A stretch of DNA of 64,000 bases from an uncultured bacterium (GTDB taxonomy: Bacteria; Babelota; Babeliae; Babelales; Vermiphilaceae), in contig OY968764.1 of assembly GCA_963695335.1 (NCBI GenBank), forward strand, positions 576,001-640,000. The letters run 5' to 3'. The translations under genes were made by a program, and so were the position numbers. The notes beneath the pieces were generated by a model. It was not told the DNA's origin. It did not search any database and was given only the letters and a program-made list of their open reading frames with translations. Positions 4,019-47,359 of this stretch are shown piece after piece (the first letter of the stretch is position 1; each line of letters starts with the position of its first letter).

Positions 4019-6409
4019 ATGAAAATATCATTAAATTGGATTTTTGATCATATCAAAGGCGAACTTGCACGCGTGGATGTTAAGCAACTGGTTGATGCAT
4101 TTATACGCACCACAGCAGAGATTGAAGGATGGCGCAAAGTTGCAATCAATACAGATAATCTGACACTTGTAGACGTTGTAGCAGTTGAGGGTGCTAATGT
4201 TACCGCGCATTCAGCGGAGCGTAACAAGAATTATACATTGCCAGCACGAGCAGATGCCGTTATTGGGGCATGTTTTATGATCGAAGACATTAATAATGCA
4301 CAAAAGTGGGCAACAACAATAATGCTTGGTGGCACCAAAGAGATGCTCATCCCAGCGCTTGATGTGCAAACCAATTTACGTGCAGGCGGTTGGAAGTCAG
4401 CAATTGAATTGAGCGATTATATTGTAGAAATTGATAATAAATCAATCAACAGTCGTCCTGATTTGTGGGGGCACCGTGGCCTTGCGCGTGAAATTGCTGC
4501 CATTTTAAATTTAGAATTAAAATCAGCTGATGAATTGATGGCCAAAAAAGATGTTATGGCACATGAACTTTCAGCACAAGCTACGTCTTATAACCCATTT
4601 GATATCACCATTGAAAATTCAAAGTTATGCAGCCGCTTTGCGGCATTATATGTGTCATCTGTTGTTCCACGAGCATCACAACTCAATACCGTTGTCCGTT
4701 TAAGCCGTGTTGATAGCAGATCAATTGATACGCTTGTTGATGCAACTAATTATGTGATGCTCGATCTTGGTCAACCAATGCATGCGTTTGATGCTGATAC
4801 ATTCCAATCAAAAAAAATAACTATTGCTGCAGCGCAACCTAAAGAGAAATTATTGTTACTCGATGGTGAAACCATCGAACTCACCCCAGAAGACGTGGTG
4901 ATCACCGATGGCGGTAAAGCAGTATCACTTGCGGGTGTTATGGGCGGTGCCAAAAGTGGTGTTTCTGCACATACAAAATCGTTATTAATAGAATCAGCAA
5001 CTTTTGATGCAGCAACAATCAGACGCACATCAGCGCGTCATAAAAAAAGAACTGAAGCCTCTATGCGTTTTGAAAAAAGTCTTGATCCTCATCAAAACAT
5101 TGATGCATTACGACGTTTTTTATTTTTACTTGATAAAGCGCATGTTACGTACCAAGCGGGTGATCGTATTGTATCATTAGGTACATGCCCAGATCAGACA
5201 TTTATTACCGTTGAACATACTTTTATAGAAGCACGTCTTGGTATTATTATTAAACCAGAGCGTGTGATTGCTATTTTGGAGCATATTGCATTTGAGGTAG
5301 AGCAATCAGTTGAACATGATACTGTTGTGTACACCGTTGCAGTTCCATCATTCAGAGCAACCAAAGATGTTAAAATTCCTGAAGATATTGTAGAAGAGAT
5401 TGGCCGTTACGTTGGGTATGATTCATTACCACGCGTCATGCCATCATTACAATTGCGACCATCTGATTTACACACAACATATACAACGCGTGCAATAAAA
5501 AAATTCTTGAGCTACGGCCTCATGATGCATGAACTGTATGGATATTCTTTTTTTGATGAATCATGGTTGCGAGAACTGAAGTGGCAACCGACAGATTTTA
5601 TTTCTGTGCAAAATCCTATTTCTGAAAATCATACTCGTTTGATTACAACGTTGCAGCCGCATATGTTAAAAGCAGTTGCGGATAACAGTATTCATCATAC
5701 AGCCTTACGCTTTTATGAATGGGGACGTGTATGGCATAAGCAGGGTGATGATATTATTGAACAAAAGTCGTTGAGTGGAATATTTTACGACCAATCTGGA
5801 TGTGATTTTTACACCAGCAAAGCAATGTTAAATCGTTTATTTGATCTGCTGCACATGAATGTGACATGGTCACCATCCTTCGACCCAGCCTTCGCCGAGG
5901 CTTCGGCGGGTAGGCGGGCGTTTACTACTGAGCAAAGTCGAAGTATCAGGACGAGCGGGGTGGGTGGCGCTGAATATTCATGGCTTTCATCCAATCAAAC
6001 AGCAGCATTGATGCATGAAGACAAATGCATTGGTGTTGCAGGAATGGTAGAAAATATGTCAGCATTTATGTTTGAAATTAACGCTGATCATCTTATTAAT
6101 TATAGACGTCCGCAGCCACGGTTTGTACCATTATCTAAGTATCCATCCGTGCGCCGTGATGTGAGTATGTTGATTCCTGCTGCAATCAGTGTTGATGCAT
6201 TGACGCAGATGATTAAAGAGGTTGATACGCGCATTCAAGATGTGGCACTTCTTGATTTCTTCACTAAGCCTGAATGGAAAGATCAGAAGGCGATGACATT
6301 CCATGTTGAGATGGGTGATCGGGAAAAAACACTTGTTGCGGATGAAGTGGAACAGATTTGGAGTAAGGTTGTTGCTCAGCTGCAAGAGCAAGGGGCGGTT
6401 ATTAGATAA
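4019..6409 (+). CDS. pheT: Phenylalanine-tRNA ligase beta subunit with in-frame repeat insertion
   Basis: MKISLNWI, RPDLWGHRGLAREIAA, NYVMLDLGQPMHAFD, EDIVEEIGRYVGY, SKYPSVRRDVS; ATG 4019 preferred to TTG 3965. Confidence 0.95.
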   Translation: MKISLNWIFDHIKGELARVDVKQLVDAFIRTTAEIEGWRKVAINTDNLTLVDVVAVEGANVTAHSAERNKNYTLPARADAVIGACFMIEDINNAQKWATTIMLGGTKEMLIPALDVQTNLRAGGWKSAIELSDYIVEIDNKSINSRPDLWGHRGLAREIAAILNLELKSADELMAKKDVMAHELSAQATSYNPFDITIENSKLCSRFAALYVSSVVPRASQLNTVVRLSRVDSRSIDTLVDATNYVMLDLGQPMHAFDADTFQSKKITIAAAQPKEKLLLLDGETIELTPEDVVITDGGKAVSLAGVMGGAKSGVSAHTKSLLIESATFDAATIRRTSARHKKRTEASMRFEKSLDPHQNIDALRRFLFLLDKAHVTYQAGDRIVSLGTCPDQTFITVEHTFIEARLGIIIKPERVIAILEHIAFEVEQSVEHDTVVYTVAVPSFRATKDVKIPEDIVEEIGRYVGYDSLPRVMPSLQLRPSDLHTTYTTRAIKKFLSYGLMMHELYGYSFFDESWLRELKWQPTDFISVQNPISENHTRLITTLQPHMLKAVADNSIHHTALRFYEWGRVWHKQGDDIIEQKSLSGIFYDQSGCDFYTSKAMLNRLFDLLHMNVTWSPSFDPAFAEASAGRRAFTTEQSRSIRTSGVGGAEYSWLSSNQTAALMHEDKCIGVAGMVENMSAFMFEINADHLINYRRPQPRFVPLSKYPSVRRDVSMLIPAAISVDALTQMIKEVDTRIQDVALLDFFTKPEWKDQKAMTFHVEMGDREKTLVADEVEQIWSKVVAQLQEQGAVIR
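5877..5958 (+). repeat. Composite A/C palindromic repeat inside pheT
   Basis: ccttcgac-ccagccttcgccgaggcttcggcgggtagg-cgggcgtttactactgagcaaagtcgaagta-tcaggacgagcgg; 5879-5948 matches 6889-6958 at 68/70 nt. Confidence 0.9.
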
Positions 6410-6410
6410 A

Positions 6411-6860
6411 ATGAACAAAAAATTGTATTGTTTTTCAGCGTTCGCCATTTTTATTCTCGACCGCGCAACAAAATTATTAGCACTCAGATGGTGCATGGAA
6501 TTTCCATGCACCATTAATCAATTTCTCTCCTTTGAAGTTGTTTTTAATCGCGGAATTTCATGGGGCATGTTTCATTCGCAAAGTGACGCCCTTTTTTTTG
6601 TTGTGTCAGCAATCATTGCAATCATAACTGCACTGCTGTGTGGATACGCATATCAGCAATATAAGCAAGGCAAGTCAATCGTAGCAGAAGTTTGTATTAT
6701 TACAGGTTCGTGCTGCAATTTGATTGATCGTGTTATATACGGCGGCGTGGTTGATTTTATTATACTTTCATATGAACAACTTTCATGGCCTGTTTTTAAT
6801 ATTGCAGATGCAGTTATTGTGTTTGGTGTTGGGTTGTTTTTACTCCGCTATGAGAAGTAA
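6411..6860 (+). CDS. lspA: Lipoprotein signal peptidase II
   Basis: DRATK, NRGISWG, NLIDRVIYGGVVDFI, WPVFNIADAVI; ATG two nt after pheT stop. Confidence 0.93.
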   Translation: MNKKLYCFSAFAIFILDRATKLLALRWCMEFPCTINQFLSFEVVFNRGISWGMFHSQSDALFFVVSAIIAIITALLCGYAYQQYKQGKSIVAEVCIITGSCCNLIDRVIYGGVVDFIILSYEQLSWPVFNIADAVIVFGVGLFLLRYEK

Positions 6861-6877
6861 AAAGTTTTATTCAAAAA

Positions 6878-6968
6878 CGTTCGTATATTTCGACCCAGCC
6901 TTCGCCAAGGCTTCGGCGGGCAGGCGGGCGTTTACTACTGAGCAAAGTCGAAGTATCAATACGAATGG
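6878..6968 (+). repeat. Composite A/C palindromic repeat, intergenic copy
   Basis: Near-identical to the pheT insert, flanked by cgttcgta...tacgaatg arms. Confidence 0.9.
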
Positions 6969-6994
6969 AAGAAAAAATTATTAATCAGTTTAAT

Positions 6995-7051
6995 CCCCAT
7001 TTTCAGTTCTTTCCGATGGGGACCCCGATTGGAACGAAGTGGAAATTGGGG
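6995..7051. repeat. Family B repeat
   Basis: ccccattttcagttctttccgatggggaccccgattggaacgaagtggaaattgggg. Confidence 0.88.
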
Positions 7052-7761
7052 CAAAAGGATACGAACACATATATGTTTCAAGATTGATAAAAAATTTAAT
7101 ACTTAATCATACATACTTTATATTCCATGTTATTCGTACGTTCCTCATGCCATCACTCTGCGCATCCTGCAAAATTTTTTTATCAACAACTGATATTTTT
7201 TGTGATACGTGCAAACGTACTATTTTTTCCATAGTTTCCAAAGAAGTAGATGTAACACCCAGTTTTTCTATGAAGGTGTTTGCACTTTCTGATTACAAAG
7301 ATCCGCTCAAAAAACTTATTTTGGCAAAAGGGTGGTCAGATACTGTTGCAAGTTATCAAATGGGACAACTGTTATCTGAATTGCCAGCATTGCAACAACT
7401 TGATTGTGATGTTATTGTGCCCATTCCATTGCATTGGACGCGTTATGCATGGCGCGGTTTTAACCAAGCAGAAGAGATTGCGCGTGTTATTCACAAGAAA
7501 AAAAATGTGCCACTCAAACATCTTATTAAAAGAATAAAAAAGACAGCATTCCAATCAACGTTGGTTTCTTCTTTGCGAGGAGAGAATCTTAAAGATGCAT
7601 TTGTGTTACATGAAAAGTGTGCACAAGATTATGTGGGTAAACATATTTTATTGGTTGATGATTTGATGACAACAGGATCAACGCTGCGTTCAGCAGCAAA
7701 AGTGCTATTGCAATTAAAGCCAAACAAAATTACGGTGGCGGTTGTGTGTAGAGTTGTATAA
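7039..7761 (+). CDS. comF: ComF family phosphoribosyltransferase-like competence protein
   Basis: CASC...CDTC zinc motif, VPIPLH..R...RGFNQAEEIA, LLVDDLMTTGSTL. Listed GTG lies inside a repeat, so the true start is probably downstream (TTG 7084 or ATG 7147). Confidence 0.85.
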   Translation: MEIGAKGYEHIYVSRLIKNLILNHTYFIFHVIRTFLMPSLCASCKIFLSTTDIFCDTCKRTIFSIVSKEVDVTPSFSMKVFALSDYKDPLKKLILAKGWSDTVASYQMGQLLSELPALQQLDCDVIVPIPLHWTRYAWRGFNQAEEIARVIHKKKNVPLKHLIKRIKKTAFQSTLVSSLRGENLKDAFVLHEKCAQDYVGKHILLVDDLMTTGSTLRSAAKVLLQLKPNKITVAVVCRVV

Positions 7762-7767
7762 AAAAGT

Positions 7768-7792: not shown

Positions 7793-7802
7793 GTGTTGTA
7801 TT

Positions 7803-11402: not shown

Positions 11403-11533
11403 TGCGCTCGTCCTGAGCCTGTCGAAGGATTTCTTCGAGCGCTCGAAAGATATCCTTTTACCCCAATATCACTCCGTTCGTATTGGGGACCCCATCGGAA
11501 GGAACTGAAGATGGGGAATAGCTGACGAGCGCA
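11403..11533. repeat. Family A palindrome with a family B element (11461-11516) nested in its right arm
   Basis: tgcgctcgtcctgagcctgtcgaagg...[ccccaat...ggggacccc...atgggg]...gacgagcgca; left part matches the murG insert. Confidence 0.85.
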
Positions 11534-13348: not shown

Positions 13349-14167
13349 TCATTTTCTAATCTCCAACAATGCCGGATCATTCGTGATAATTGGCTCCAGT
13401 GGAATTTGTGGTCGTGGAGCCAAAGGTGATAAATATGGTGTATAAAAATAGTATGGGCGTTGTAATTTAAGTAAAATTTTTAATCCAAACCATACGCCAA
13501 ATATTGGTGGCACCCACCAATATTTTTTTAACCAATTTTTCCACGTAATTTTTGAATTCAATTCATACTTTTCTATAAATGGTGGTAGCTCATTGACCAG
13601 CATATCTATTGCGCTTAAAACTTCTGCAATTGGCAACTGATTAATGATATTGTTGATTGCAATAATTGTTTCGAGCGTTGATTTTTTTATTGGATGGTGA
13701 TGTTGCGCGCATTCATCAAAAAGAATGTGTTTGTGAACAGCAAAAATAAGAATGAGTGTTTCGTGTAAGAAGTGGCTGCTCTGCGCATTAATGTTGTGCT
13801 GAGTGTATTGGAGCAATAGAATAATTGGTTTAAGCGATTCGGCGGCGATTGCTTGTTTAAGACTGTTACATATGGTCGGATGAGAAAAAGTAACTGGTCC
13901 CAGTTGTATGGAATCTGCTTGTTCAGTGATATTGCATGGAGCATAATGATACTGTTGTTTATGTAAGCGTGATAAAAAGTTGATAGATTTTGTAAGGCAT
14001 GGAATGCAGTAAGTATGTTTTTTTAATCCGCTTAACCCTTCGATACATTTTTGCTTTGCAAAAACACTCAGGGCGAGCGGAAAGGATAAAGCATTTTCTT
14101 TTAAGGGGACCCCCGATTGTAATGAAATGAAAATTGGGGCAATAGTAATTGTTATTACTTTTTTCAT
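13349..14167 (-). CDS. Hypothetical protein with C-terminal membrane segment; N-terminus contains repeat-derived sequence
   Basis: 272-aa ORF after sbcD; codons ~10-47 are encoded by repeat B and A sequence. Confidence 0.65.
   Translation of the reverse strand: MKKVITITIAPIFISLQSGVPLKENALSFPLALSVFAKQKCIEGLSGLKKHTYCIPCLTKSINFLSRLHKQQYHYAPCNITEQADSIQLGPVTFSHPTICNSLKQAIAAESLKPIILLLQYTQHNINAQSSHFLHETLILIFAVHKHILFDECAQHHHPIKKSTLETIIAINNIINQLPIAEVLSAIDMLVNELPPFIEKYELNSKITWKNWLKKYWWVPPIFGVWFGLKILLKLQRPYYFYTPYLSPLAPRPQIPLEPIITNDPALLEIRK
14027..14140. repeat. Family A plus half family B repeat inside ORF 13349..14167
   Basis: tccgcttaacccttcgatac...cactcagggcgagcgga (matches 26646-26698) then ggggacccccgattg...attggggc. 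Confidence 0.85.
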
Positions 14168-26645: not shown

Positions 26646-26698
26646 TCCGCATACCCTTCGATACGTTTTTGAAGACAAAAACACTCAGGGCGAGCGGA
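26646..26698 (+). repeat. Family A repeat variant
   Basis: tccgcatacccttcgatacgtttttg...caaaaacactcagggcgagcgga. Confidence 0.8.
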
Positions 26699-26751
26699 GA
26701 AAACAATGTTTAGTCGGTTTAGAGTAAGAGTGCTTATCCCCGCTCGCTTAA

Positions 26752-26808
26752 CCCCATCTTCAGTTCCTTCCGACGGGGACCCCGATTGGAACGAAGTGAA
26801 AATTGGGG
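26752..26808. repeat. Family B repeat
   Basis: ccccatcttcagttccttccgacggggaccccgattggaacgaagtgaaaattgggg inside ccgctc...gagtgcgg arms. Confidence 0.88.
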
Positions 26809-26846: not shown

Positions 26847-27500
26847 ATGATGAAAAATAGTGTCAAAGTTGCATCCTTTGCTGGTATAGCAAAAATTTCA
26901 GGACTGATGAAAATCAGTTTTTTAGTTGGATCTCAGATGATATGGTTCTCTGCAACTAACAGTGTTTTACCATTAGCTGGTGCTTTTGGTGGTGTTATGG
27001 GCAGTGGACTTGTTTTTTTTATTCGCCAATTAATTCATTTCATGTTCTTTAAAACAGTTTCTTTGAGTTTCCTTGCTTTTTGTATTCCAGGATTATGTGC
27101 ATCGCTCTATTGGTCTACACAACATTATACAATTCGTTTATTATTGCCTATCGTTTGCATGGGATTGTTTGTTATTCATCCTGTTGGCGCGCAGGCATTT
27201 GTCTATTCTTTGTACTGGTTAATTCCAGTTGTTTTATTTTTTATTCCACAAACACAAAAATCATTGTTCTTACAAGCTTTTGGCAGCACATTTATAGCAC
27301 ATGCAGTTGGTTCGGTTATTTGGTTATATACAGTACCAATGACTGCTGCGATGTGGATGGGGCTTATGCCGATAGTATTGTTTGAGCGCATTGCTTTTGC
27401 GCTTGGTATGGTTATTGCACATTATGTTATATCATTTATTTTTGGAATGATTGATATGATGTGTGTTGCTGACAAAACAGTTGTCCCAGCGGTTCGTTAA
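26847..27500 (+). CDS. Polytopic membrane protein of unknown function
   Basis: 217 aa, hydrophobic throughout. Confidence 0.7.
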   Translation: MMKNSVKVASFAGIAKISGLMKISFLVGSQMIWFSATNSVLPLAGAFGGVMGSGLVFFIRQLIHFMFFKTVSLSFLAFCIPGLCASLYWSTQHYTIRLLLPIVCMGLFVIHPVGAQAFVYSLYWLIPVVLFFIPQTQKSLFLQAFGSTFIAHAVGSVIWLYTVPMTAAMWMGLMPIVLFERIAFALGMVIAHYVISFIFGMIDMMCVADKTVVPAVR

Positions 27501-27536: not shown

Positions 27537-27688
27537 CGTTCGCTCATTTTTATCCCCAATTTCCACTTCATTCCAATCGGGGTCCCCGTCGAAATGAAAT
27601 GAAGATGGGGTTAAACAAGCTCAATGCGAACGGAAAGAAAAATTTTATTGTTCCCCGTTCGTGCTGAGCCTGTCGAAGCATACGAACG
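27537..27688. repeat. Family A element carrying a family B insertion (27554-27610)
   Basis: Same as 63645-63728 except for the inserted cccc...gggg block. Confidence 0.88.
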
Positions 27689-28409: not shown

Positions 28410-29435
28410 TTATTTTTTACTATATTTTTTCTGTTTTTTTGCTTGTTTTTCTGCATCTATTTTTTCTTGAAGACGCGCATTCTGTCTTTTTTGTATTGCA
28501 TCTTGAATGCGTTTAACATCTTTGTTTACTGTAAGTGGTGTTTGTCCCTTGTTATTAGCTATTTCAGGATTTGCTCCTGCATGTAGAAGAATAAAAATAC
28601 ATCCTGATTGAAGATGTTTGTTTTCTTTTGATAAACATGTGGCCATGAGGGCAGTGTTTCCATGATTGTCTTGCAGATCAATATGTATGTTTGGAGATTT
28701 GCAGAGCAATTGGAGCACTGCTGGATTATCGTTAGTGTATGCGCATGCTATAAGAGCTGTTTCATTGTAAGCATTTTGATAGTTTATATTCACCTTATTG
28801 GTTGCAAGTAAGGATTCAATTTTAACTGCTTTATAAGGGCTTTCATACAGTGCGCTATTAATGAGTAATGTGCTTTGATCGTCGTAGCGGGTGTGGTTTG
28901 AGTGTTGGTAGGTAAAGTTTAAATCTACGTAATTTTTATACTGATCATATAAATCTTCAAATTTTTCTACGTCAAAATCCCATTGCGCAAATAAGGTTTT
29001 AAATGTTTTTTGAATAGCAAGACGATGCTGTGCTTCTTTGGTTTGTAATGCTTGTGTTGCTATTTCATCTGAACAATGAAATCGTTGAGCAAGGTGCTTG
29101 ATCAGTTTAAAACAAAACGATGGTTTATTAATAAGTGTATTCAATTGTATATTGATTTTTGTGAGTGAATTAATCGCATCTGCTGAAGATTCTAGTGTGG
29201 ATGCGGTATTGTTTTTAGTAAGAAAGAAAAGTGTTTTTGCTTGTTCTTCTGATGGTAAATATTCAAATTTTGGATCCTGATGTAAAAAATGTTCAAGTGG
29301 TTTTGTGCCGTGCAAAAGAGCATCAGTAACAAAAGTTAACCAGCCATTGTTACCATTCTTATTTTCTGGTTCCATGCCAAAGGCAGTGGATGTAGATGTA
29401 ATGAGAAGTAGGATCAGAATACTATTTTTTTTCAT
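28410..29435 (-). CDS. Secreted F-box-like/ankyrin-repeat protein
   Basis: AFGMEPE; FEYLPSEEQ; shared INxL...LINxPxFC domain; ETALIAC, GNTALMA, GQTPL. Confidence 0.8.
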   Translation of the reverse strand: MKKNSILILLLITSTSTAFGMEPENKNGNNGWLTFVTDALLHGTKPLEHFLHQDPKFEYLPSEEQAKTLFFLTKNNTASTLESSADAINSLTKINIQLNTLINKPSFCFKLIKHLAQRFHCSDEIATQALQTKEAQHRLAIQKTFKTLFAQWDFDVEKFEDLYDQYKNYVDLNFTYQHSNHTRYDDQSTLLINSALYESPYKAVKIESLLATNKVNINYQNAYNETALIACAYTNDNPAVLQLLCKSPNIHIDLQDNHGNTALMATCLSKENKHLQSGCIFILLHAGANPEIANNKGQTPLTVNKDVKRIQDAIQKRQNARLQEKIDAEKQAKKQKKYSKK

Positions 29436-30288
29436 GTTTTTTATCTATTGCATTTTGAATAAGATTAATAATTTCTTCATTACCAACTCTTTGTGCATCT
29501 TGTAGTGCTGTGCGGCCATCATTAGCGGTAATTTCTGGATCTGCGCCGGAGTTAAGAAGAAGTTCTGTCATTAATTCACCATAACGGTTCATTGTGAAAA
29601 AGAGAGCAGTACGTCCCCGCTTATTTTGTTGATTTATTTTAATATTAGGATTGTTTAAAAGGCATTTGACTGCATTTATTGCTCGCATAAAAGTAGCAAT
29701 CATTAAAGCTGTTGTTCCATTTTTATTAGCTTTATTAATATCTGCCCCATGATCGAGAAGTGTTCGAATGAGAGGACAATTATTGTTCTGTGCTGCTATG
29801 AATAATAGGGTTATGTTCTCTTTATCGGTGAAATTTAAATCTACGTAACCTTTATATTTTTTATAGAGATCATTAAATTTTTGTTCATTAAAATTTTCTT
29901 CTTCACATAGATTGTAAAATTTTTTTTGAATTTTTAGACGTTTCTTTGCTTCTTGTGTTTGCAGCGCTTCAGCTGCTTCTTGGTCAGAGCATTTAAATTG
30001 TTGTGCGAGGTTTTTTATAAATCTAAAACAAAATTGAGGATCATTGATTAATTCATGTAATTCTGGGCTTGTTTGTGCAAGAGCATTAATCATTTTTCCG
30101 GCTTCTTGTACTGTTTTTGTTGTGCTAGTTTTTGTAAGTAAATTGATCATGTAAGCATACATTTCAAGAGGAAGTTCTGCAGATACAGATGGCTCTTCTG
30201 GTTCCATGGTGTGTGTTTTGTGGGTATTAAAAGTTGTAGAAAGCAACAACAGTGCGTAAAATAAACTTGTTTTTTTGAATGTCTTCAT
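29422..30288 (-). CDS. Secreted F-box-like/ankyrin-repeat protein
   Basis: MKTFKKTS...THTMEPE; ELPLEM; GTTALMIA, GRTALFF, GRTALQDA. Confidence 0.82.
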   Translation of the reverse strand: MKTFKKTSLFYALLLLSTTFNTHKTHTMEPEEPSVSAELPLEMYAYMINLLTKTSTTKTVQEAGKMINALAQTSPELHELINDPQFCFRFIKNLAQQFKCSDQEAAEALQTQEAKKRLKIQKKFYNLCEEENFNEQKFNDLYKKYKGYVDLNFTDKENITLLFIAAQNNNCPLIRTLLDHGADINKANKNGTTALMIATFMRAINAVKCLLNNPNIKINQQNKRGRTALFFTMNRYGELMTELLLNSGADPEITANDGRTALQDAQRVGNEEIINLIQNAIDKKHEKK

Positions 30289-30289
30289 C

Positions 30290-31357
30290 TTATTTCCCTT
30301 GTTTTTCATGTTTTTTCTCTATTGCTTCTTGAATAAAATCAATAATTCTTTGGTAACCTCCTGCCTGGGCTGCTTGTAGAGGAGTAAGTTTTTTATGGTT
30401 AGCGAGCTCAGGGTCAGCACTGGCTTCAATGAGAAATTCTACATTCTTGAAGTTGTAATTGTTGTTGCTGCTATTTTCAATGGCATATATTAAGGCAGTA
30501 TTGCCAATTTCATCTTGTTGATTGATGTTGAGCTTTGGAGAAGCAAGTAGTGCTTTAATTGCTGACATATGTGAGTTAACTACTGAGTATTCTGCTGCAA
30601 GCATCAAGGCAGTTTTTCCCTTATCGGTTGTTTGATTTATATTGCTTCCTTGTTTGAGTAATAGATTAATTACGGATGTTTGGGGATTTACTGATGCGAT
30701 CATTAATGGAGTAAGGAATTTTTCTGCGAAGTACTTACTTTGTGTGGGGTTATTATAGGTAAATTCTAAATCAAAGCCGTCTTGACATACATATTTGAGG
30801 TTATTTCGTATTGGATTGTTGGATTCGCTCTGGATTATTTGAATGAAGCGTTTTTGAATGGCGAGACGATTTTTTGCTTCTTTTGTTTGTAATATTTCTG
30901 CAGCAGTTTCATTTGAACAGTTAAATTTTTGTGAAAGAGTTTTAATGGTTTTTAGACAAAAATTAGGATCATTAATTAATGTATTTAATTCTTTATTTAC
31001 TTGGGCAAGAGCATTAATTGCTTGTGCAGCTTCTTTTAATGATGTGGCGGTTACTCCTGCAAAAAGCAATGAGGTGATTACTGCTTGTACATCTTGTGGT
31101 AATTCAGTAAAACGGAATGGTTCGATTGGTTGTTCTTGCTCTGCATGGATATACGATAAAAACTGTTGATATGCTGCATATCCACCAATAATAACGCCAC
31201 CGGCAAGTGCTACCCAACCTACTTTTTTTACATCTTCTGGTTCCATGGTGTATGTTTTATGGGTATTAAAAGCGGCAGAAAGCAGCAATAGTGTGTAAAA
31301 TAAGCCTGTTCTTCGTAGCTTTAGCGCAGTAGAACTTGTTTTTTTGAGTGTTTTCAT
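30290..31357 (-). CDS. Secreted F-box-like/ankyrin-repeat protein with 30-nt repeat in its signal peptide
   Basis: TYTMEPE; FTELPQDVQAVI; LTPLMIA, GKTALMLA, GNTALIYA. Confidence 0.82.
   Translation of the reverse strand: MKTLKKTSSTALKLRRTGLFYTLLLLSAAFNTHKTYTMEPEDVKKVGWVALAGGVIIGGYAAYQQFLSYIHAEQEQPIEPFRFTELPQDVQAVITSLLFAGVTATSLKEAAQAINALAQVNKELNTLINDPNFCLKTIKTLSQKFNCSNETAAEILQTKEAKNRLAIQKRFIQIIQSESNNPIRNNLKYVCQDGFDLEFTYNNPTQSKYFAEKFLTPLMIASVNPQTSVINLLLKQGSNINQTTDKGKTALMLAAEYSVVNSHMSAIKALLASPKLNINQQDEIGNTALIYAIENSSNNNYNFKNVEFLIEASADPELANHKKLTPLQAAQAGGYQRIIDFIQEAIEKKHEKQGK
31304..31333 (-). repeat. Family C 30-nt in-frame insertion
   Basis: tctactgcgctaaagctacgaagaacaggc (STALKLRRTG) is absent at the same site in paralog 29422..30288. 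Confidence 0.8.
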
Positions 31358-31526
31358 GGTACTTCCTTTTTTATGGATCTATTCACCCTTTAGATTATAC
31401 GATTCATTTTCATTTAGTCAATAATACAAAGAATAATCAGAGGGAGAGCTCGGTAGGATCGTTGCTGTGGGGTATCCAGATAGAAATTTTTATGGTAAGA
31501 TTATTTTAAATTACCGCTCAAGGATA

Positions 31527-31552
31527 TCCTTCGACAGGCTCAGGACGAGCGG
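31527..31552 (+). repeat. Family A repeat
   Basis: tccttcgacaggctcaggacgagcgg. Confidence 0.8.
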
Positions 31553-31614: not shown

Positions 31615-33519
31615 ATGATTAATGGATATAACGTTTGTTTGGCGATGGTTACGCAGGTCATTTTTGATGATGTTTCCTTTGTTTTTGATCAAGACCAGCG
31701 TATTGGCCTGGTCGGGCGTAATGGTGCAGGCAAATCAACTTTATTAAAGGTTATTGCGGGTCAACAGCAATTGGATAAAGGTTCTGTTGCCATTCAAAAG
31801 GGTAAAACCATAGCATATCTCTCACAAGACGTGGTGCTCCAGTCAGATAAATCCATTGTGGAAGAAACATATACTGCCTTTGCTCATATCGCAGGACTCA
31901 TAGAAGAACAGCAGAAAATTGAAGAGCAGCTTGATAAGGGTGAAGCAACGGACGATCTTCTTGAGCGTTACGCAGATGTTTGTGAAAAACTGTTGGACGT
32001 AGATCAAGAAGGTATGCGTGCAGAGGCAAAAAAAGTTTTGATGGGATTAGGTTTTAAGCCAGAACAGTTGGATCAACCGGTTGCCAACTTGAGTGTTGGG
32101 TGGAAGATGCGTATTGTTTTGGCTAAATTATTGCTCCAAAAAGCTGATTTCTATCTTTTTGATGAACCTACTAACCATTTGGATATTGTTGCAAAAGAGT
32201 GGTTTTTACAATTTTTGAAACGTGCACCATTTGGTTTTGTGCTGGTGTGCCATGATCGTTATTTCTTAAACCAACTTTGTAATGTTATGTTTGAGATAGA
32301 ACGTGGTAAAGGTACATTGTACTTTGGTGATTATAATAAATATGAAACACAAAAAGCTCATAATGAAGCATTGTTAGAAATGCAATATAAAAACCAACAG
32401 CGTGAAATTAAGCAAAAAACAGAAACTATTGAGCGTTTTAAAGCTAAAGCAAGTAAGGCTGGTATGGCACAAAGTATGCTTAAAGCCTTGGATAAAATTG
32501 AGCGTATTGAATTACCTCCTAAGTCTCCTGATATTGGTTTTAGTTTTCCACCAATTCAACAAGCTGGTAGCGTTGTTTTAACGGTTGAAAATGTTGCGCA
32601 TTCATTTGGAAATAAACAGATTTTCAAAAATGTTTCATGTGAAGTTCAGCGTGGTAAAAAAGTTGCACTTGTTGCTGCAAACGGTGTGGGTAAAACAACA
32701 TTATTTAATTTGATTGCGCACAGATTACCGCTCACAACAGGAACAATTACTCCTGGTTATAACGTTCATTATGCGGTATTTGATCAAGATCAGACTGCAT
32801 CACTTATACTTGATAAAACAATTATAGAAAATATTACTGAATCATGCCCTAAAGCAACAGAACAAAAAATAAGAGCGTTTGCTGGTGCATTTTTATTTAC
32901 CAAGGATAGTATCGATAAAAAAGTTGGTGTGCTCAGTGGTGGTGAAAAAAACCGTGTTGGTATGATTAAAGTGTTGTTGCAAAATGCTAATCTTTTACTC
33001 CTTGATGAACCCACTAACCATTTGGACATTCAATCAAAAGATATTTTGTTAAAAGCATTGCAAGCGTATCAAGGTACTATTCTTTTTGTTTCGCATGATC
33101 AGGATTTTGTGAATAAACTTGCAACAGATATTATTGAATTGAGTGTTGATGGCGCAAAAGAATATCCAGGTAATTACGAATCATATCTGTACCAAAAGAA
33201 TTTAGAAACACAAAAAGCCCAGGCCGCTGAATCTTCTGCGAAAAAAGTAAATAACAACAAAAAAGAATCCTCCTACGCCAAGGCTACGGCGGACAGGTCT
33301 GAACCTGTTGCACCAAAGAAAGCGACGGTTTCAGATGTAGAAATCAAAGCACTTGAGCGTAAAATTCAAAAATTAGAGCATGATATACAAAGAACAGAGA
33401 ACAGTTTTGCTGATCTTGTTTTTGGTACACCAAAGTTTGCCGATACGCAAAAGAAGTTGAATGATCTTAAAAAAGAGTTAGAGATTGCAAATGCTGAATG
33501 GGAAGCTTATTTAAGTTAG
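31615..33519 (+). CDS. ABC-F family ATPase
   Basis: GRNGAGKST, LSVGWKMR, DEPTNHLD twice, NGVGKTT, LSGGEK; C-terminal coiled coil. Confidence 0.93.
   Translation: MINGYNVCLAMVTQVIFDDVSFVFDQDQRIGLVGRNGAGKSTLLKVIAGQQQLDKGSVAIQKGKTIAYLSQDVVLQSDKSIVEETYTAFAHIAGLIEEQQKIEEQLDKGEATDDLLERYADVCEKLLDVDQEGMRAEAKKVLMGLGFKPEQLDQPVANLSVGWKMRIVLAKLLLQKADFYLFDEPTNHLDIVAKEWFLQFLKRAPFGFVLVCHDRYFLNQLCNVMFEIERGKGTLYFGDYNKYETQKAHNEALLEMQYKNQQREIKQKTETIERFKAKASKAGMAQSMLKALDKIERIELPPKSPDIGFSFPPIQQAGSVVLTVENVAHSFGNKQIFKNVSCEVQRGKKVALVAANGVGKTTLFNLIAHRLPLTTGTITPGYNVHYAVFDQDQTASLILDKTIIENITESCPKATEQKIRAFAGAFLFTKDSIDKKVGVLSGGEKNRVGMIKVLLQNANLLLLDEPTNHLDIQSKDILLKALQAYQGTILFVSHDQDFVNKLATDIIELSVDGAKEYPGNYESYLYQKNLETQKAQAAESSAKKVNNNKKESSYAKATADRSEPVAPKKATVSDVEIKALERKIQKLEHDIQRTENSFADLVFGTPKFADTQKKLNDLKKELEIANAEWEAYLS
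33268..33297 (+). repeat. Family C 30-nt repeat in-frame in ABC-F linker
   Basis: tcctcctacgccaaggctacggcggacagg (SSYAKATADR); close match to 36248-36278. Confidence 0.8.
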
Positions 33520-35390: not shown

Positions 35391-35495
35391 TGCGCTCACC
35401 CTGATGCTTCGTCAAGCTCAGCAGTAAACACCTGCCTTGAGAACTTGCCGTGCCTGCCATAGCCTTGGCGACGGCAGGTTGAAGGGTTAAGCGCT
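35391..35495 (-). repeat. Composite A/C repeat in opposite orientation to the pheT copy
   Basis: Reverse complement: gcgcttaacccttcaacctgccgtcgccaaggctatggcagg...gtttactgctgagcttgacgaagcatcagggtgagcgca. Confidence 0.8.
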
Positions 35496-36199: not shown

Positions 36200-36213
36200 A
36201 GAATATAATTTTT

Positions 36214-36654
36214 GAGGTATACAGTAAGCCGGATTTTGTTGCTCTTGTCCTCCTTCGCGTAAAGCTTCGGCGGACAGGCGAGCTGACAACCATTTATCTA
36301 TGCGACATACCCGCATGTTTAACCGGAATGAACAACCGACACATGCTTTTTTGTCTTGCTTCTGGTAGGGTTTGCCCGCTGTGCATATTACTATGCATAG
36401 CCGTGCGCTCTTACCGCACGTTTTCACCCTTGCCTTACCCCAATTTACACTTACGTTACGATCGGGGACCCCGTTTAAGAATTAATTCCTAAAGAGAGTG
36501 GGCGGTTATTTTCTGTGGCACTTTCCATGAGCTTGTGCTCTCTTGAGTTAAAATCTATCTAGGGGATTGATTTTTCCGCAGGTACCATGTTCATTTGAAG
36601 TCCGGACTTTCCTCACGTAAGCATAGACTTACGCGCGATTGTCTTGTATACCCC
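36214..36654 (-). ncRNA. rnpB: RNase P RNA (type A-like, apparently lacking P18)
   Basis: GAGGAAAGUCCGG, GGAAAGUGCCACAGAAA, GGGUGAAA, GGUAAGAG, GGCAAACC, AGCAAG, AGAUAAAUG, ACAAAAUCCGGCUUA in order; P1 GGUAUACA/UGUAUACC, P2 GACAAUC/GGUUGUC, P6 AUGAACA/UGUUCAU. Confidence 0.95.
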
Positions 36655-37776: not shown

Positions 37777-38703
37777 ATGATAAAGTGTAAAAAATATGCG
37801 ATAGTATGGGCTCTCTTTTTTTGTCACCAATCTATTTTTTCTTATGGTTTACCAAGTCTTCGATTAGGATATAACACTATTCTTGAGGGTGGTCCATTGC
37901 GTCCACGACCAGGTATTTATTTGTTTGAATGGTCAAAATATTATACTACGCAACGATTTTTAAACGCAGAAGGAAAACCACTTGATGGTGTTCCTTCTCC
38001 TCGTTTTAGAGAATGGACAATTACTTCGCAAATTGCGTGTCAGTTTGGCAAGCAACCTTTATTGCGTGAAGGTATGCCGGGATTAACTTTGGGCGTTCCA
38101 TTTGTTGCATATTCAAAGATTGAAAAAAATGAGTTGGATATGAGAACGAGTGGCACAGGTTTTGGTAATTTAAGATTAGCTGCGTATATTCAATGGCCTT
38201 GGCTTGAGCGTAATGGGGAAAAGTTTTTTATTCATCGTCTTGAATTTGATATGTCTGTTCCAATGGGAAAAAATAAACTTCCTGAAAAACAGATCAATCC
38301 TCAAAATCCCTTTGTTTATCTTGGTCCAAATTGGTCAGCCACCATAGTTCTTGCTGAAAAATGGACGACATCCTGGTCATTGCATTATGTTTGGAGTGCT
38401 AAAAATGAAAAAATTGATTTTCAAGCAGGAGATGCATTTTATGGTAATTATGCTGTATCGTATCAAGCATTACCTGGTTTTTATATATCCGGAGTTGGGT
38501 ACGTATTAGCTCAGTTACATGATAATAAAGCATTTGGGATATCTGAGCCTAAAAGTAAAACACGCTTATTTGCAAGTGGCCCTGGTATGGCATATTATTT
38601 TTCACCAGATATCATTCTTTTAAGTTATCTGTATCTTGAATATGGAGCGAAAAACAGTACCGAAGGTACCAATTTTATTGTACGTCTTGTTTGTCGTTTT
38701 TAA
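37777..38703 (+). CDS. SphA/MetA-pathway type outer-membrane transporter
   Basis: LGYNTILEGGP..PGIY, SGTGFGNL, FIHRLEF, GPG, terminal F. Confidence 0.75.
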   Translation: MIKCKKYAIVWALFFCHQSIFSYGLPSLRLGYNTILEGGPLRPRPGIYLFEWSKYYTTQRFLNAEGKPLDGVPSPRFREWTITSQIACQFGKQPLLREGMPGLTLGVPFVAYSKIEKNELDMRTSGTGFGNLRLAAYIQWPWLERNGEKFFIHRLEFDMSVPMGKNKLPEKQINPQNPFVYLGPNWSATIVLAEKWTTSWSLHYVWSAKNEKIDFQAGDAFYGNYAVSYQALPGFYISGVGYVLAQLHDNKAFGISEPKSKTRLFASGPGMAYYFSPDIILLSYLYLEYGAKNSTEGTNFIVRLVCRF

Positions 38704-38755
38704 TGTGATAGCCGAAGAACATTTTAATTTTCTATAATTATATAACAAAGTACAT

Positions 38756-39682
38756 ATGATAAACGGTAAAAAATATGCAATAATATGGATTCTTCTTTTT
38801 TTTATTGTTCAAACAAAAGGTTATGGATTACCACAGTTAGGCTTAGGTTATACCAGTATTCTTGAAGGTGGTCCTATACGACCAAATCCTGGTATTTATT
38901 GGCAAAATTGGTTGCAATATTATACAACGAAACGATTTTTAGATGATAAAGGGAAGCCTCTTGGAGGTGTTCCCTCTCCTCATGTAAGAGAGTTTGAGTA
39001 TGTTACAAATCTTGCATATCAAACTGAGAGGCAAACATTTTTAGGTGGTATGCTAGGATTTGAAATGGTATTGCCTTTTACTCTTGTTTCCAAAGTTGAT
39101 AAAGATAATGCGCTTGGTATAAAAAGTAGCGGTAGTGGTGTTGGTGATTTAGGATTAGGTGTTTATGTTCAATGGTTTGCTACGTTTTATCATGGTCGTC
39201 CTATTTTTGTTCATCGACTTGAATTTTCATTTACTACCCCTTTGGGAAAAAATGAGTTACCTGAAAAACAGATTAATCCGAGTCATCCCTTTTTTCATTG
39301 CGGGCCAACGTGGTCTGCTACGTTATATTTTTCACATAAATGGAATATGTCATGGGATTTGGATTATGTGTGGTGTGCTAAAAATGAAAAAATTGATTTT
39401 AGAAATGGAGATGCGATTTTTGGGAATTACAGCTTAGCATATGAACCACGTGAGCGTTTGTATATTGCAGCAGTGGGATATTTTTTGAAGCAGTTGCATA
39501 ATAATAAGGCTCTTGGTGTAACGGTGCCAGATAGTAAAGAGCGTATATTTGCTATTGGCCCTGGTGTTGCTTATTTTCATTCACAAGATGTGATTATTGT
39601 TGGTTATTTGTATTTTGAGGCTGGGGTAAGGAATCGCACACAAGGAACTAGCTTTATTTCACGTCTTGTTCTGCATTTTTAG
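38756..39682 (+). CDS. SphA/MetA-pathway type outer-membrane transporter, tandem paralog
   Basis: LGYTSILEGGP..PGIY, SGSGVGDL, ERIFAIGPG, terminal F; same length as neighbour. Confidence 0.78.
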   Translation: MINGKKYAIIWILLFFIVQTKGYGLPQLGLGYTSILEGGPIRPNPGIYWQNWLQYYTTKRFLDDKGKPLGGVPSPHVREFEYVTNLAYQTERQTFLGGMLGFEMVLPFTLVSKVDKDNALGIKSSGSGVGDLGLGVYVQWFATFYHGRPIFVHRLEFSFTTPLGKNELPEKQINPSHPFFHCGPTWSATLYFSHKWNMSWDLDYVWCAKNEKIDFRNGDAIFGNYSLAYEPRERLYIAAVGYFLKQLHNNKALGVTVPDSKERIFAIGPGVAYFHSQDVIIVGYLYFEAGVRNRTQGTSFISRLVLHF

Positions 39683-43737: not shown

Positions 43738-43760
43738 AAAAATAATTTTTTGTTGTGATT

Positions 43761-43800
43761 AATAAATAGCGCTTGGTAAAAACCAGGCGCTATTTTTATT
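43761..43800 (+). terminator. Intrinsic terminator
   Basis: aaatagcgcttggt...accaggcgctattttt. Confidence 0.8.
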
Positions 43801-43858
43801 GTGATGTAATGTTATACTTGAGCTGCGCATTTTAAAAGTCTTAAGCAAAGAGGATATT

Positions 43859-45034
43859 GTGAGAAGAAAACCATTACATTTTATGATGTTACATCTATTG
43901 TTATGGGTTGGATTATTGCAACCCGATGGATTTGTTGAGCATACGTTAGTCAAACATGAATATGGTTTTAAACCAATTCAACATTTTGTTGTAGGCAATA
44001 ATGTTGTTGTGGTCGCTGATGGCGGACAACTGCAGCAAAATTCTGTATCTCACACCATGAGCTATGTTGCTGATTGTTTTATAAAAATTCAGATTAAAGA
44101 TATTTGTGTTTGTGCAGCACCAGATCAAAAATTTTATTCATGCACTAGAAATGATTGGGTGGGTGCTCGTGCATTACATGTTTCAGAACAGCTGTTGTGT
44201 GGTAGTGGAAATGTTGTCTCTGTTGATGCAGTTGAAATGGTGCATAAGCAACAAAGAATGCATGCGTTTACTGTTGATACAAGTCATATCTTTTGTGTAA
44301 CTCCGTATGAAATTATTGCGCATAATGTTGAACCAGTTTCTATGGTCGGAACAGCAACCATTGTTCTTCCTGCATTAACTACTGCATGTCCACCAGCAGG
44401 AATTGTTGCAGGAGTGGCATGGGGCATTCTGGGTTGTGTGATGTTTTGTAAGCATAGAAAAGCTCATAGATATGAATTGCAACATAAAGGCTGTTTTTCT
44501 CCTGAGAGTAGAAATGGTACAACAACACCAATCGCTAGCGGTTGTTATGAACCTGTACAAAATGTTCCTATTGTTTGTGATATAAAAGCTGGAAAAGAAG
44601 ATCTTCCTACCAAGTTGGTTCATGAAATTCCTGAGAATAATGTTGATAAAGGTTGTGAATTTCCTATTCATGTTGAACAACCTATATTGCATCACGCTGC
44701 AACAATTCAAACTGATGGTGATGAAAATAGGCATTATGAGGGACCTTGGTATAATCGCACGGAAGATTGGGTGAAGGAGTTTAAACATAAAGATAAGCTT
44801 GGGCGGACAGATCACTTTAATCAAGGTAAGCGTCTTTTTAAAGTGCTTAAAAAGATAGAGGATTCTGATGCTTTAAAAAAAGGGGATTATGTAGTAGTTG
44901 ATGCTTTACATAACGATCATCTGGAAGTATATGATGGAAGCCGCAATTGGAAGTGTGTTGCAAATTTTGATGGTACTAAAAATGAACAGAAAACACAGCA
45001 AGCTAAACGAACATTACGACATCGAGCATTTTAA
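43859..45034 (+). CDS. Polymorphic toxin: signal peptide, Hint domain, TM segment, Ntox21-like RNase
   Basis: GAGG RBS + GTG; GFVEHTLV...KPIQ...VGN...FTV..SHIFCV...IAHN; C-terminal KKGDYVVVDALHNDHLEVYD...VANFDGTKNEQKT. Confidence 0.8.
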   Translation: MRRKPLHFMMLHLLLWVGLLQPDGFVEHTLVKHEYGFKPIQHFVVGNNVVVVADGGQLQQNSVSHTMSYVADCFIKIQIKDICVCAAPDQKFYSCTRNDWVGARALHVSEQLLCGSGNVVSVDAVEMVHKQQRMHAFTVDTSHIFCVTPYEIIAHNVEPVSMVGTATIVLPALTTACPPAGIVAGVAWGILGCVMFCKHRKAHRYELQHKGCFSPESRNGTTTPIASGCYEPVQNVPIVCDIKAGKEDLPTKLVHEIPENNVDKGCEFPIHVEQPILHHAATIQTDGDENRHYEGPWYNRTEDWVKEFKHKDKLGRTDHFNQGKRLFKVLKKIEDSDALKKGDYVVVDALHNDHLEVYDGSRNWKCVANFDGTKNEQKTQQAKRTLRHRAF

Positions 45035-45059
45035 TTTCGATTAGGTTTTAGGGTATTAT

Positions 45060-45758
45060 ATGAAAAATGATAAATGGCTTGAAGAAATAGATAGAAAAGT
45101 TGAAGAAGAACGTAGGGCCTATCGAGGTCCACATTGTTGTATGACTATGCATTATGAATTATTAAGCGAAGCAAGCTTATTAATTTATAATATTCAATGG
45201 CGAGAGTATGGTATCAAATTGTATAGACCAAATACTGGCTATTTACTGATGCAATATTGTACGGATTGTGGTACAAAATTACCTGATTCATTAAAAAATA
45301 TGTGGTTTAATATTTTAAAAGAAGAATACTTTCTAATAGATCCAATAGAGAATGATAAGGAGCTAATTCCTGAAAAATTTTTGACAGATGAATGGTGGAA
45401 TCCGAATAGAATTTTTAATAGTTATCGAGGTAATCAAGAAGTAAGTAGAAATATAAAAATAAAAAGTAACATAACCCATTGTTGTGATGCTTTAGATTAT
45501 GAATTACTTAACAAAACCAGCGTATTAATGTATTCACCAAAATACCGTGAATATAATATAAAACTCCCAAGTTTTCCCGGTGGGGCAGCGATGGATTATT
45601 GCCTGTTTTGTGGCCAACAATTTCCATTTTCAGTACGTTGTGAGTGGTTTGATATACTAAGGGAAGAATATCAATTAGAAAGTCCTTGTGAGGGGGATAA
45701 AAAGAAAGTTCCTGCACAGTTTTGGACAGATGAATGGTGGAAAAATCGTGGATTATAA
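45060..45758 (+). CDS. Candidate immunity protein, two CC...CxxC domains (DUF6980-like)
   Basis: HCC...REY.I...YCxxCG..(L/F)P.S....WF.IL...F.TDEWW occurs twice; directly after toxin. Confidence 0.7.
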   Translation: MKNDKWLEEIDRKVEEERRAYRGPHCCMTMHYELLSEASLLIYNIQWREYGIKLYRPNTGYLLMQYCTDCGTKLPDSLKNMWFNILKEEYFLIDPIENDKELIPEKFLTDEWWNPNRIFNSYRGNQEVSRNIKIKSNITHCCDALDYELLNKTSVLMYSPKYREYNIKLPSFPGGAAMDYCLFCGQQFPFSVRCEWFDILREEYQLESPCEGDKKKVPAQFWTDEWWKNRGL

Positions 45759-46098
45759 AGAATGGAGTGATGCAATAGATGCAAGGGTCGCGGAAAAAAG
45801 ACGTAATTATAAAGGACCTCATTGTTGTTTAACAATGGATGCCGGATTATCCATGGCAGGAGCTATTTTATACTATGATAAACAATATCGTGAATATGGA
45901 GTAGATTTTGGCGTAAGAGGAGGGATGTTAATTGATTACTGTATGTTTTGCGGTAAAAAACTACCAATATCTGTACGTGATGAATGGTTTGATATATTAG
46001 AAAAAGAATATGGGTTAGAAGAACCTTTACATGAAGATAAGAAAAAAGTTCCTGCTGAGTTTTGGACAGATGAATGGTGGAAAAAACGCGGGTTATAA
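45748..46098 (+). CDS. Candidate immunity protein, single CC...CxxC domain
   Basis: GTG 45748 gives MDYKEWSDAID, aligning with MKNDKWLEEID; HCC, REYG, YCMFCG, FWTDEWW. Confidence 0.7.
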   Translation: MDYKEWSDAIDARVAEKRRNYKGPHCCLTMDAGLSMAGAILYYDKQYREYGVDFGVRGGMLIDYCMFCGKKLPISVRDEWFDILEKEYGLEEPLHEDKKKVPAEFWTDEWWKKRGL

Positions 46099-46103
46099 AA
46101 ATG

Positions 46104-46128
46104 ATGCCAGCTTAAAAACTGGCATTTT
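46104..46128. terminator. Short terminator hairpin
   Basis: atgccag...ctggcatttt between convergent genes. Confidence 0.6.
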
Positions 46129-46132
46129 CTTT

Positions 46133-47359
46133 TTATAGATCATTATAAGATTCATTATCGTGTTCAGAATCCCATTCGCTCAGTGTTGACGCTAGCACTT
46201 GAAGATAATCTTGATCTGTAGAATTTATTAATTGATTAATGTGTGTATATAACATATGTGGATCTTTCTCAACATCACTTTGCGCAAGCATATAAAATTG
46301 TTCTGGATATTCTTCTACCATTGCACATGCATTATCAACTTGATGCGTTGTAGTGTTGGTCATGAGTGGAATAATAATGCATGGTTTACCAAAAAATTTA
46401 ATTTCAAACAAGGTTCCAGCTCCTGCGCGGCATATAATCAGATCTGCGGCCGAATACATGAGTGCAAGATCGGGATGATAACTGAATACATGCGCTGTAA
46501 TATTTTTTGATGCATAGAGTTGTTTCCAATCTGTATTATCAATTGATCCTGTTTGATGAATAATTTGCATAGTATCAGCAGGAAAAGAAGGGTTGTTAAC
46601 CCATTGTTGCATGTATTGGTTCAAAAAGAGGGAACCTTGCGAACCACCAAGAATGGCAATTGTTTTTTTCGCAGGTGATAAGTTTAATTTTTGTAAAGCT
46701 ACTTTTTGATCAAATATGGAATCATATTTGATTGGATACGGTGCAACAGAGCATTTGTGTGCAGGGAAATATTTCTGTGATGTTGCAAATGGGGTAATGA
46801 TTGAAGTTGCAAGGGGAGTTAAAAACTGTATTGCTTTGCCAGGTACAGCATCAAGGGAGTAAAGAGTTATGGGAATGCGTAATATAAATCCTGCTATGCA
46901 TGTTGGGATAGCCACAATGCCACCGGTGGTGAGGATTTGTGTTGGTCTATGCTTGTATAAATAAAAAAAACTTATCAAAAATGAACGACATGCATTGAAC
47001 AATGTTGTGATATAAGACCCTGCGCGTGTGCTGAGCGGGAGCATAACGTGCCATGTAACTGATGCATTGTCTGATAAAATGGTTTTATCAAGTGGCGTGT
47101 TTGATGAAAAGAAAAGAATATTCTTCTGTTCTTGATTCTGGTTATTTTTGATAACCGTAAGGCATGGAATAATATGTCCACCAGATTTACCCGCGACACA
47201 GCAGATTGTTTGTGTATAACATAAATTACTTTGTTTTTTGTCTCCCGCGCTCGCCCTGAACTTGTTGAAGGGTTTCTTCGAGCGCTCTAAGATACCCTTT
47301 AACAAGTTCAGGGCGAGCGCAAGAAAAGATATAAATAAGATTAGCTTAATGATATTCAT
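46133..47359 (-). CDS. murG: MurG glycosyltransferase with repeat-containing N-terminal extension
   Basis: AGKSGGHIIP, TGG, GGSQGS, HQTG, ADLIICRAGAGT..E, HQVDNA; ATGA overlap with upstream stop. Confidence 0.9.
   Translation of the reverse strand: MNIIKLILFISFLALALNLLKGILERSKKPFNKFRASAGDKKQSNLCYTQTICCVAGKSGGHIIPCLTVIKNNQNQEQKNILFFSSNTPLDKTILSDNASVTWHVMLPLSTRAGSYITTLFNACRSFLISFFYLYKHRPTQILTTGGIVAIPTCIAGFILRIPITLYSLDAVPGKAIQFLTPLATSIITPFATSQKYFPAHKCSVAPYPIKYDSIFDQKVALQKLNLSPAKKTIAILGGSQGSLFLNQYMQQWVNNPSFPADTMQIIHQTGSIDNTDWKQLYASKNITAHVFSYHPDLALMYSAADLIICRAGAGTLFEIKFFGKPCIIIPLMTNTTTHQVDNACAMVEEYPEQFYMLAQSDVEKDPHMLYTHINQLINSTDQDYLQVLASTLSEWDSEHDNESYNDL
47247..47320. repeat. Full family A palindrome in-frame in murG
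   Basis: gcgctcgccctgaacttgttgaaggg...ccctttaacaagttcagggcgagcgc, 26-nt arms with one G-T pair. Confidence 0.9.

Follow-up and report, generated by a model that had tools for sequence, protein, structure and literature searches.

The Rickettsia palindromic elements (RPEs) of Ogata et al. (2000, 2002), as summarised in PMC10969869, PMC3733652 and PMC1458961, number 526 copies in R. bellii, 53 of them in coding sequences (CDS) and one in tmRNA; RPEs are also treated in PMC3184786. Another kind of dispersed hairpin, NTS/SRM, accompanies the single-stranded nucleases (Ssn), for which an insertion sequence-like repeat-gene-repeat layout has been noted (Chenal et al. 2025, PMC11893778); repeat-nuclease-repeat units as a driver of repeat expansion are offered there as a hypothesis only. 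For the CGTC repeats no dedicated transposase was found (Di Nocera et al. 2013, PMC3733652). Here we describe hairpin repeats of comparable behavior in an uncultured member of the Babeliales, a group for which parasitism of eukaryotes has been inferred (PMC4776705). The window analyzed is a stretch of 64,000 nt, positions 576,001 to 640,000 of contig OY968764.1 (G000:C1:576001-640000, where G000 is our handle for this single-contig genome of 1.37 Mb and 35.7% GC). In it the repeats lie within the reading frames of five open reading frames (ORFs) and twice in rnpB. We hold with moderate confidence that they are selfish hairpins derived from, and probably spread by, mini-cassettes carrying a small single-domain GIY-YIG nuclease.

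Iterated profiles resolved five repeat families in the genome: A (a 28 bp hairpin), B (a 35 bp arm), B′ (B with a long loop), C (a 56 bp hairpin) and D. At E<0.05 there were 110 matches to A, 212 to B, 79 to B′, 144 to C (both strands) and 24 to D, and none to any of the five in the reversed genome, which served as control. Merged, they make up 371 repeat loci with a total of 19 kb; the window contains 22 of these. The build is modular, B arms often containing nested A, C or D, and 96 of the 226 B-type outer arms pair up as 48 inward-facing arm pairs (<=260 bp) with size classes of 63-73 bp and 118-202 bp. Neither direct repeats nor duplicated targets mark the insertions: flanking direct repeats of at least 6 bp are no commoner than in shuffles (A 1.7 versus 1.4%, B′ 0 versus 0.9%, C 2.8 versus 1.5%), and no target duplication is evident on comparing empty ortholog sites. 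General local copying was considered and rejected, the best partners of repeats being no closer than other family members (6/204 within 5 kb). The B doublet had no match among plasmids. A 25-nt B core has exact matches in many phyla, including Sphingomonadales, Dehalococcoidia, Acidobacteriota and others (among 80 loci listed of at least 120 found), which contradicts the original prediction that the system is an independent analogue belonging to this lineage.

That prediction, made from the window alone, had placed repeats in five ORFs, on different strands and in different frames, and two more in rnpB. Every copy is there, of families far above chance, and the diversity of frames and strands stands for the window, though genome-wide one frame dominates family A. 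The sites were right, with limits refined from 5877-5958 to 5876-5959 in pheT and from 33268-33297 to 33268-33300 in the ABC-F gene. The inserted peptides are missing from orthologs, and the objection that repeat-free relatives might contain the same peptides therefore fails.

The pheT gene (4019..6409, plus strand), identified as Phe-tRNA ligase beta by Pfam and orthologs, contains an 84-nt composite of half a B with nested A and D (5876..5959, plus strand) that adds 28 residues in frame (S620-G647). The gene was matched in 41/41 genomes, and with 30 loci aligned the insert is absent from 29/29 orthologs; pheT in G005, G008 and G009 carries separate family A inserts, located at two other positions. 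The copy most like the G000 insert in its own genome is intergenic, 95% identical and about 1 kb away (6889..6964, plus strand). A model made from a 29-row alignment matches solved PheRS beta chains and has a mean pLDDT of 87.5, the sole stretch below 50 being residues 622-650. The insert forms a low-confidence loop in this model, the low confidence being partly forced by the gap column. About 30 residues past the insert, near window positions 6050-6060, this pheT has an in-frame loss of ~10 residues kept in the orthologs shown, which the model closes as a beta-hairpin.

Family A accounts for two further cases. The ABC-F ATPase gene (31615..33519, plus strand, Pfam) gains 11 residues in frame at 33268..33300 (plus strand), in the linker before the C-terminal domain, a difference of +33 nt from both G005 and G008. 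Among 14 aligned orthologs, one partial sequence having been left out, those of G009 and G010 carry segments derived from A in this linker. An ankyrin-repeat gene (30290..31357, minus strand, Pfam) gains 10 residues in frame at 31304..31333 (minus strand), before a hydrophobic N-terminal stretch, which is +30 nt relative to its tandem paralog at 29422-30309, the one sequence compared. ORF 13349 (13349..14167, minus strand), conserved in the genus and without a Pfam family, holds a B′ hairpin plus half a C at 14036..14140 (plus strand). Here the predicted repeat is present and the frame is kept, but the change is a replacement of the N-terminal segment (net +27 nt versus G005) and not a clean insertion. 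The repeat is missing from the two closest of nine homologs; in three more, the same N-terminal region is occupied by other B-type repeats. Calling the ankyrin and ORF 13349 proteins effectors, as was done originally, is inference only.

In murG (46133..47359, minus strand, Pfam and orthologs) the reading frame runs through an inverted B doublet at 47247..47320, an empty cassette whose 37-bp arms are 92% complementary. The ATG at 47359 overlaps the stop of the upstream gene, as in orthologs, and there is no in-frame ATG between the repeat and the conserved core. The net gain of 138 nt makes 46 extra N-terminal codons built round the doublet, absent from 18/19 orthologs and common to G000 and G002; the 5′ part is the same in G002, and the 3′ part there holds a nested C, still in frame. 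The added segment is strongly hydrophobic, with a Kyte-Doolittle mean of 2.3 over 19 residues, and basic residues follow. The positive-inside rule relates such residues to the cytoplasmic side, so the enzyme would be expected to stay on that side. Over a small sample of 28 codons, G000 and G002 differ by six synonymous and three conservative changes. The same hydrophobic-then-basic frame is read from B doublets at the N-termini of genes at G000:C1 322057, 676835, 813269, 870489 and 900433, and several of these proteins look secreted; all the starts are putative.

Structural RNA is affected in rnpB (36210..36654, minus strand; class A RNase P RNA), where both predicted copies are real. A family A copy (36249..36277, plus strand) replaces a short 3′ hairpin that we take to be P19, and a family C copy (36439..36478) extends a variable helix, presumably P12. 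Among 16 aligned genes the A copy is found in G000 only. The variable helix has C in G000 and G005 and visibly in G002, G003, G006 and G008, B′ in G010, and an A-like unit in G009 and G004.

Coding copies are widespread in the genome. With a simple gene caller of our own, repeats masked in scoring (1110 genes, 78% coding), at least 59 of the 371 loci lie wholly in called CDS (45 internal, 11 N-terminal and 3 C-terminal), a count that is too low for N-terminal cases such as murG; RPE-like behavior is thus larger in scale than was seen from the window. Hosts include FtsZ, PolA, Rho, MutL, DnaG, FtsK, DprA, PGK, Ddl, BamD and parts of ABC transporters. Nine host genes from outside the window were checked in five congeners, leaving out two partial loci. 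None of the five has the PolA or the PGK insert; the FtsZ, FtsK, DprA and Ddl loops have different repeats in different species; and the MutL linker has B-type repeats in all 5/5 orthologs. DnaG shows a small gain within a variable linker, and for the rho insert there was no match at 16 bits, the alignment showing only a longer variable segment. Frame breaks near repeats in ddl and ftsK of G008 were not used, as that genome has other breaks, possibly assembly errors. In G000 a tandem double D-Ala-D-Ala ligase forms one 798-aa ORF with three repeat inserts (C1 149120-151516), its halves being two separate ORFs in G003. At C1 1105213-1107823 uvrA appears split into frames of 742 and 146 aa, whether really or by assembly error, and a B′ copy reaches its 3′ end.

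The chief coding invader is family A, with 45/121 copies in CDS. One hydrophilic frame, reading S-F/Y-A-K-A-S/T-E/A-D-R-like peptides, is used by 29 of the 42 coding copies that can be scored (those with an anchorable core). Another frame on the same strand is equally open (42 versus 44 of 47 intergenic copies), and relative to open-frame availability in these 47 the bias has a chi-square p of ~2e-11, the copies not all being independent. The surroundings of inserts are linker-like, with a hydrophobic fraction of 0.28 against 0.36 in the proteome. Family A density in CDS is ~0.17 of that in intergenic DNA, and the ceiling, if all in-frame, stop-free insertions survived, is ~0.23 by rough arithmetic; a density so near the ceiling is high and points to a preference for certain targets or to quicker loss of intergenic copies. 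That the coding copies are old and decayed was rejected, since they are nearer the consensus than the others (median 26.8 versus 22.9 bits, p=4e-4). The inserts are presumably translated.

The genes that connect these repeats with a possible mobiliser lie outside the window and were missed by the original prediction. G000 has three genes for small single-domain GIY-YIG proteins of ~80-95 aa in which the conserved Tyr, Tyr, Arg and Glu positions are present, and they are flanked by genome-abundant hairpin repeats. NCBIfam gives no informative name for these nucleases. We examined 78 of ~95 short GIY-YIG matches, dropping one broken copy, setting 61 on a tree and placing 16 by profile, which yielded three clades: a B-clade (28), an A-clade (40) and a third clade (9). 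Inverted B/B′ arms stand on both sides of 17/28 B-clade genes, and a B, B′ or D match on at least one side of 24/28. The B-clade gene of G000 (C1:565521-565808) is enclosed by B′ arms and precedes the window by 10 kb; the A-clade genes of G000 are at C1:205106 and 895128. Empty B doublets look like such a cassette minus its gene, and the 48 arm pairs match the cassette architecture. Genes of the A-clade (~78 aa) have a family A match upstream (5′) in 15/40 at 17 bits, and looser A-like hairpins were seen by eye at most of the other loci. The A-clade cassette often follows a tRNA or tmRNA, one of which is found in 17/38 A-clade loci versus 0/22 B-clade loci. SRM-like flanks mark the third clade, whose members seen here are all from other genera.

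Repeat family and nuclease clade occur together across 41 genomes (B 13/7/3/18, p=0.001; A 20/4/2/15, p=6e-6), tests that are inflated by kin; outside the genus the family A association holds (p=6e-4). A congener, G001 (95% complete), serves as a natural negative control, having no A, B, B′ or C matches and no small nuclease, only one long GIY-YIG ORF. Some individual loci may be added. Upstream of one A-clade gene of G000 (at 895128) the region C1 894800-895130 is tandemly duplicated, with two A-type hairpins per unit. Ssn-like nuclease genes occur in other Babeliales genera (loci L108, L109, L286, L293, L301, L302, L304 and L307), several with inverted SRM-like flanks. Loci L095 (G009) and L096 (G004) have a full B-arm/GIY-YIG/B-arm cassette directly 3′ of pheT; the repeat cluster of G000 at 6889-7050 is one gene further on from pheT.

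The system functions like RPEs and like Ssn/SRM, and membership of neither is established. Its likeness to RPEs is one of behavior, in a different phylum. As with RPEs, dispersed palindromic repeats of a small-genome, host-dependent bacterium lie in frame in unrelated housekeeping genes, are absent from orthologs, and enter structural RNA too (here the two in rnpB); the scale is also comparable, with 371 loci of which at least 59 fall in CDS and 2 in rnpB. RPE units are ~105-150 bp, whereas most units here measure 30-75 bp and combine in a modular way (about 30 bp for A; 63-73 or 118-202 bp for B doublets). RPE units encode a conserved peptide; those of G000 give recurrent peptides in preferred frames. 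Unlike RPEs, they have physically linked candidate mobiliser genes. With Ssn/SRM they share a small single-domain GIY-YIG gene and a flanking hairpin also scattered in hundreds of copies. However, the G000 nucleases group apart from the clade with NTS/SRM-like flanks (27-32% identity) and may lie outside the Ssn clade cd10448, and the best PDB matches of the B-clade protein are UPF0213 proteins (E 1.5e-14). The A, B, B′ and C consensus sequences do not fit the NTS string of PMC11893778, and NTS are rarely intragenic (2%) compared with the 45/121 of family A.

CGTC- and GTAG-tagged repetitive extragenic palindromes (REPs), including the REP/RAYT systems, are likewise short hairpins forming head-to-head dimers, intragenic in DNA-repair genes and tRNA synthetases, and the CGTC repeats lack a dedicated transposase (PMC3733652). 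The G000 repeats differ from REP/RAYT in having no GTAG tag and no Y1 transposase bracketed by them (0/12 loci scanned). CGTC REPs are described as having a terminal CGTC, an 8-9 bp stem, a 4-5 nt loop and a CCA tail; some B copies hold CGTC near the outer end, but compared by this description only, their stem and tail do not fit. Prokaryotic miniature inverted-repeat transposable elements (PMC10969869) resemble our repeats in being non-coding, in having inverted ends (as do the 48 inward-facing B-arm pairs) and in looking like internal deletions of a gene-carrying parent. Here, however, there is no target-site duplication signal, and the parent carries a GIY-YIG nuclease, not a recognised transposase.

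In the mechanism we propose, the nuclease would cut single-stranded DNA at its cognate hairpin, by analogy with SsnA, and host repair or recombination would then copy the hairpin to new sites. Copying of this kind would leave no target duplication, and the hairpin would often take the place of a few bases of the target. On this view the empty doublets would descend from the nuclease cassette as non-autonomous forms. Selection would remove frameshifting insertions and those within folded cores. What survives would be concentrated in linkers, loops, N-termini and variable RNA helices, and would mostly be read in the frame that gives a short hydrophilic peptide. The new peptides would be a tolerated by-product, not an adaptation.

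Several points weigh against this proposal. A nuclease alone cannot join DNA, and both cleavage and mobilisation are proposals here. G005 has 40 B and 13 B′ matches, yet no B-clade nuclease was found in it, and family C, which appears nested in B arms, is without a nuclease of its own. Outside the genus the B association is not significant (4/6/3/17, p=0.18), kin again not being independent, and 17/95 small GIY-YIG matches were not fetched and are scored absent in the co-occurrence table. The murG insert is shared by G000 and G002 and absent from G005, the sister of G000 (bootstrap 100). Low pLDDT is expected at alignment gaps, which bears on the pheT loop. G000 also has three near-identical IS200-type Y1 copies (C1 369218, 574578 and 1166633), one of them 1 kb before the window, and their near-identity suggests recent activity. 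Alternatively, the inserts could be real and tolerated and have spread otherwise, through an IS200/Y1 transposase in trans or through host recombination or gene conversion, the nuclease being a passenger, or else a regulator whose target is incoming single-stranded DNA, like that of SsnA during Neisseria transformation. Y1 transposases are present in 10/41 genomes, G000 has DprA, the repeats of G005 exist without the B-clade nuclease, and the demonstrated role of SsnA is control of transformation, not transposition (PMC11893778). We nevertheless think this account unlikely. With none of 12 Y1 loci scanned bracketed by repeats, RAYT/IS200 was rejected as a dedicated mobiliser; repeat-rich G003, G005, G008 and G009 gave no Y1 match; and the repeat family tracks the nuclease clade.

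The original prediction spoke of a protein-insertion system. The term suggests a purpose; the data instead fit selfish spread plus purifying selection. An adaptive system kept for new functional protein segments, for example a membrane anchor of MurG, could draw on the hydrophobic murG segment and its mainly synonymous changes, on the reuse of the same loops across species, and on the family A density near its ceiling. Yet most inserts are confined to one species and, where a site is shared, the inserts there differ; G001 does without the families, the murG variants may simply be repeat variants, and loop reuse is equally expected from tolerance; we judge adaptation improbable. Still less credence goes to assembly chimeras, pseudogenes or wrong start codons, an explanation that we regard as very improbable. 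Three DNA runs (shares 0.07-0.14) gave short contigs only, none covering 5635-6328, so the pheT insert is without read support; uvrA appears split; and one upstream start in the window, at 35407-35474, is indeed false. Set against these, inserts in murG, Ddl and rnpB are common to separate genomes, pheT, murG and ftsZ are each present as one full-length copy, repeat copies differ from one another, and the starts of murG, ORF 13349 and the ankyrin gene agree with orthologs or the paralog.

The other repeats of the window are intergenic. Family C hairpins lie at 6995..7050, 57387..57442 and 60941..60996, a B arm with nested C at 11404..11516, a B arm at 31515..31551 (plus strand) and a B pair at 63647..63728. 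A composite of D and A (35407..35474, minus strand) is intergenic if the start codon common to orthologs is taken; it was rejected as a sixth coding copy, the upstream start being false by comparison with orthologs. The gene below the C hairpin at 57387 seems to carry ATA where G005 has ATG (57350-57390), and its start is uncertain. B′ and C copies at 26654..26807 and C and B copies at 27555..27688 enclose an ORF at 26847-27500 between inverted C copies. This ORF was rejected as a mobiliser of C; its product is a hydrophobic protein of 217 aa that belongs to no Pfam family, and it is conserved in G005 and G008 at the corresponding position. The window also has tandem paralog arrays at 28410-31357 (three ankyrin genes), 37777-39682 (two 308-aa ORFs) and 45060-46098 (three ~340-bp units).

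We found nothing in the literature on such repeats in Dependentiae/Babeliae or on repeat-linked UPF0213 nucleases, within a search of mainly openly available papers; the SRM genome lists of PMC11893778 may bear on the point, and the string 'palindrom' does not occur in the text of PMC4776705. New here are the scale across genome and genus, the presence of two clade-specific pairings within a single genome, the bias in frame, the reuse of hotspots and the natural negative control. Tentatively, we suggest a wider possibility: that tiny GIY-YIG nucleases outside the described Ssn clade mobilise a transposase-free class of hairpins, that at least two nuclease-repeat pairs (inverted-arm and tRNA-linked cassettes) are active together in the genus, and that peptides are written into essential proteins near the frame-allowed rate, with occasional lasting features such as the hydrophobic MurG N-terminus.

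How coding palindromes and CGTC-type repeats spread is an open question, for which this genus offers named enzymes of 80-95 aa, each with a hairpin of its own, together with gene-less derivatives, sites in both the occupied and the empty state, and a congener that has neither enzyme nor hairpin, bringing the question within reach of a simple bench assay. The inserts map insertion-tolerant loops of essential proteins, and the system may yield single-strand nucleases of new specificity. RPE-like protein remodelling is extended to another phylum of host-dependent bacteria and, if the proposal is true, nuclease mobilisers would provide a mechanism, so far missing, by which coding palindromes of the RPE/CGTC type spread.

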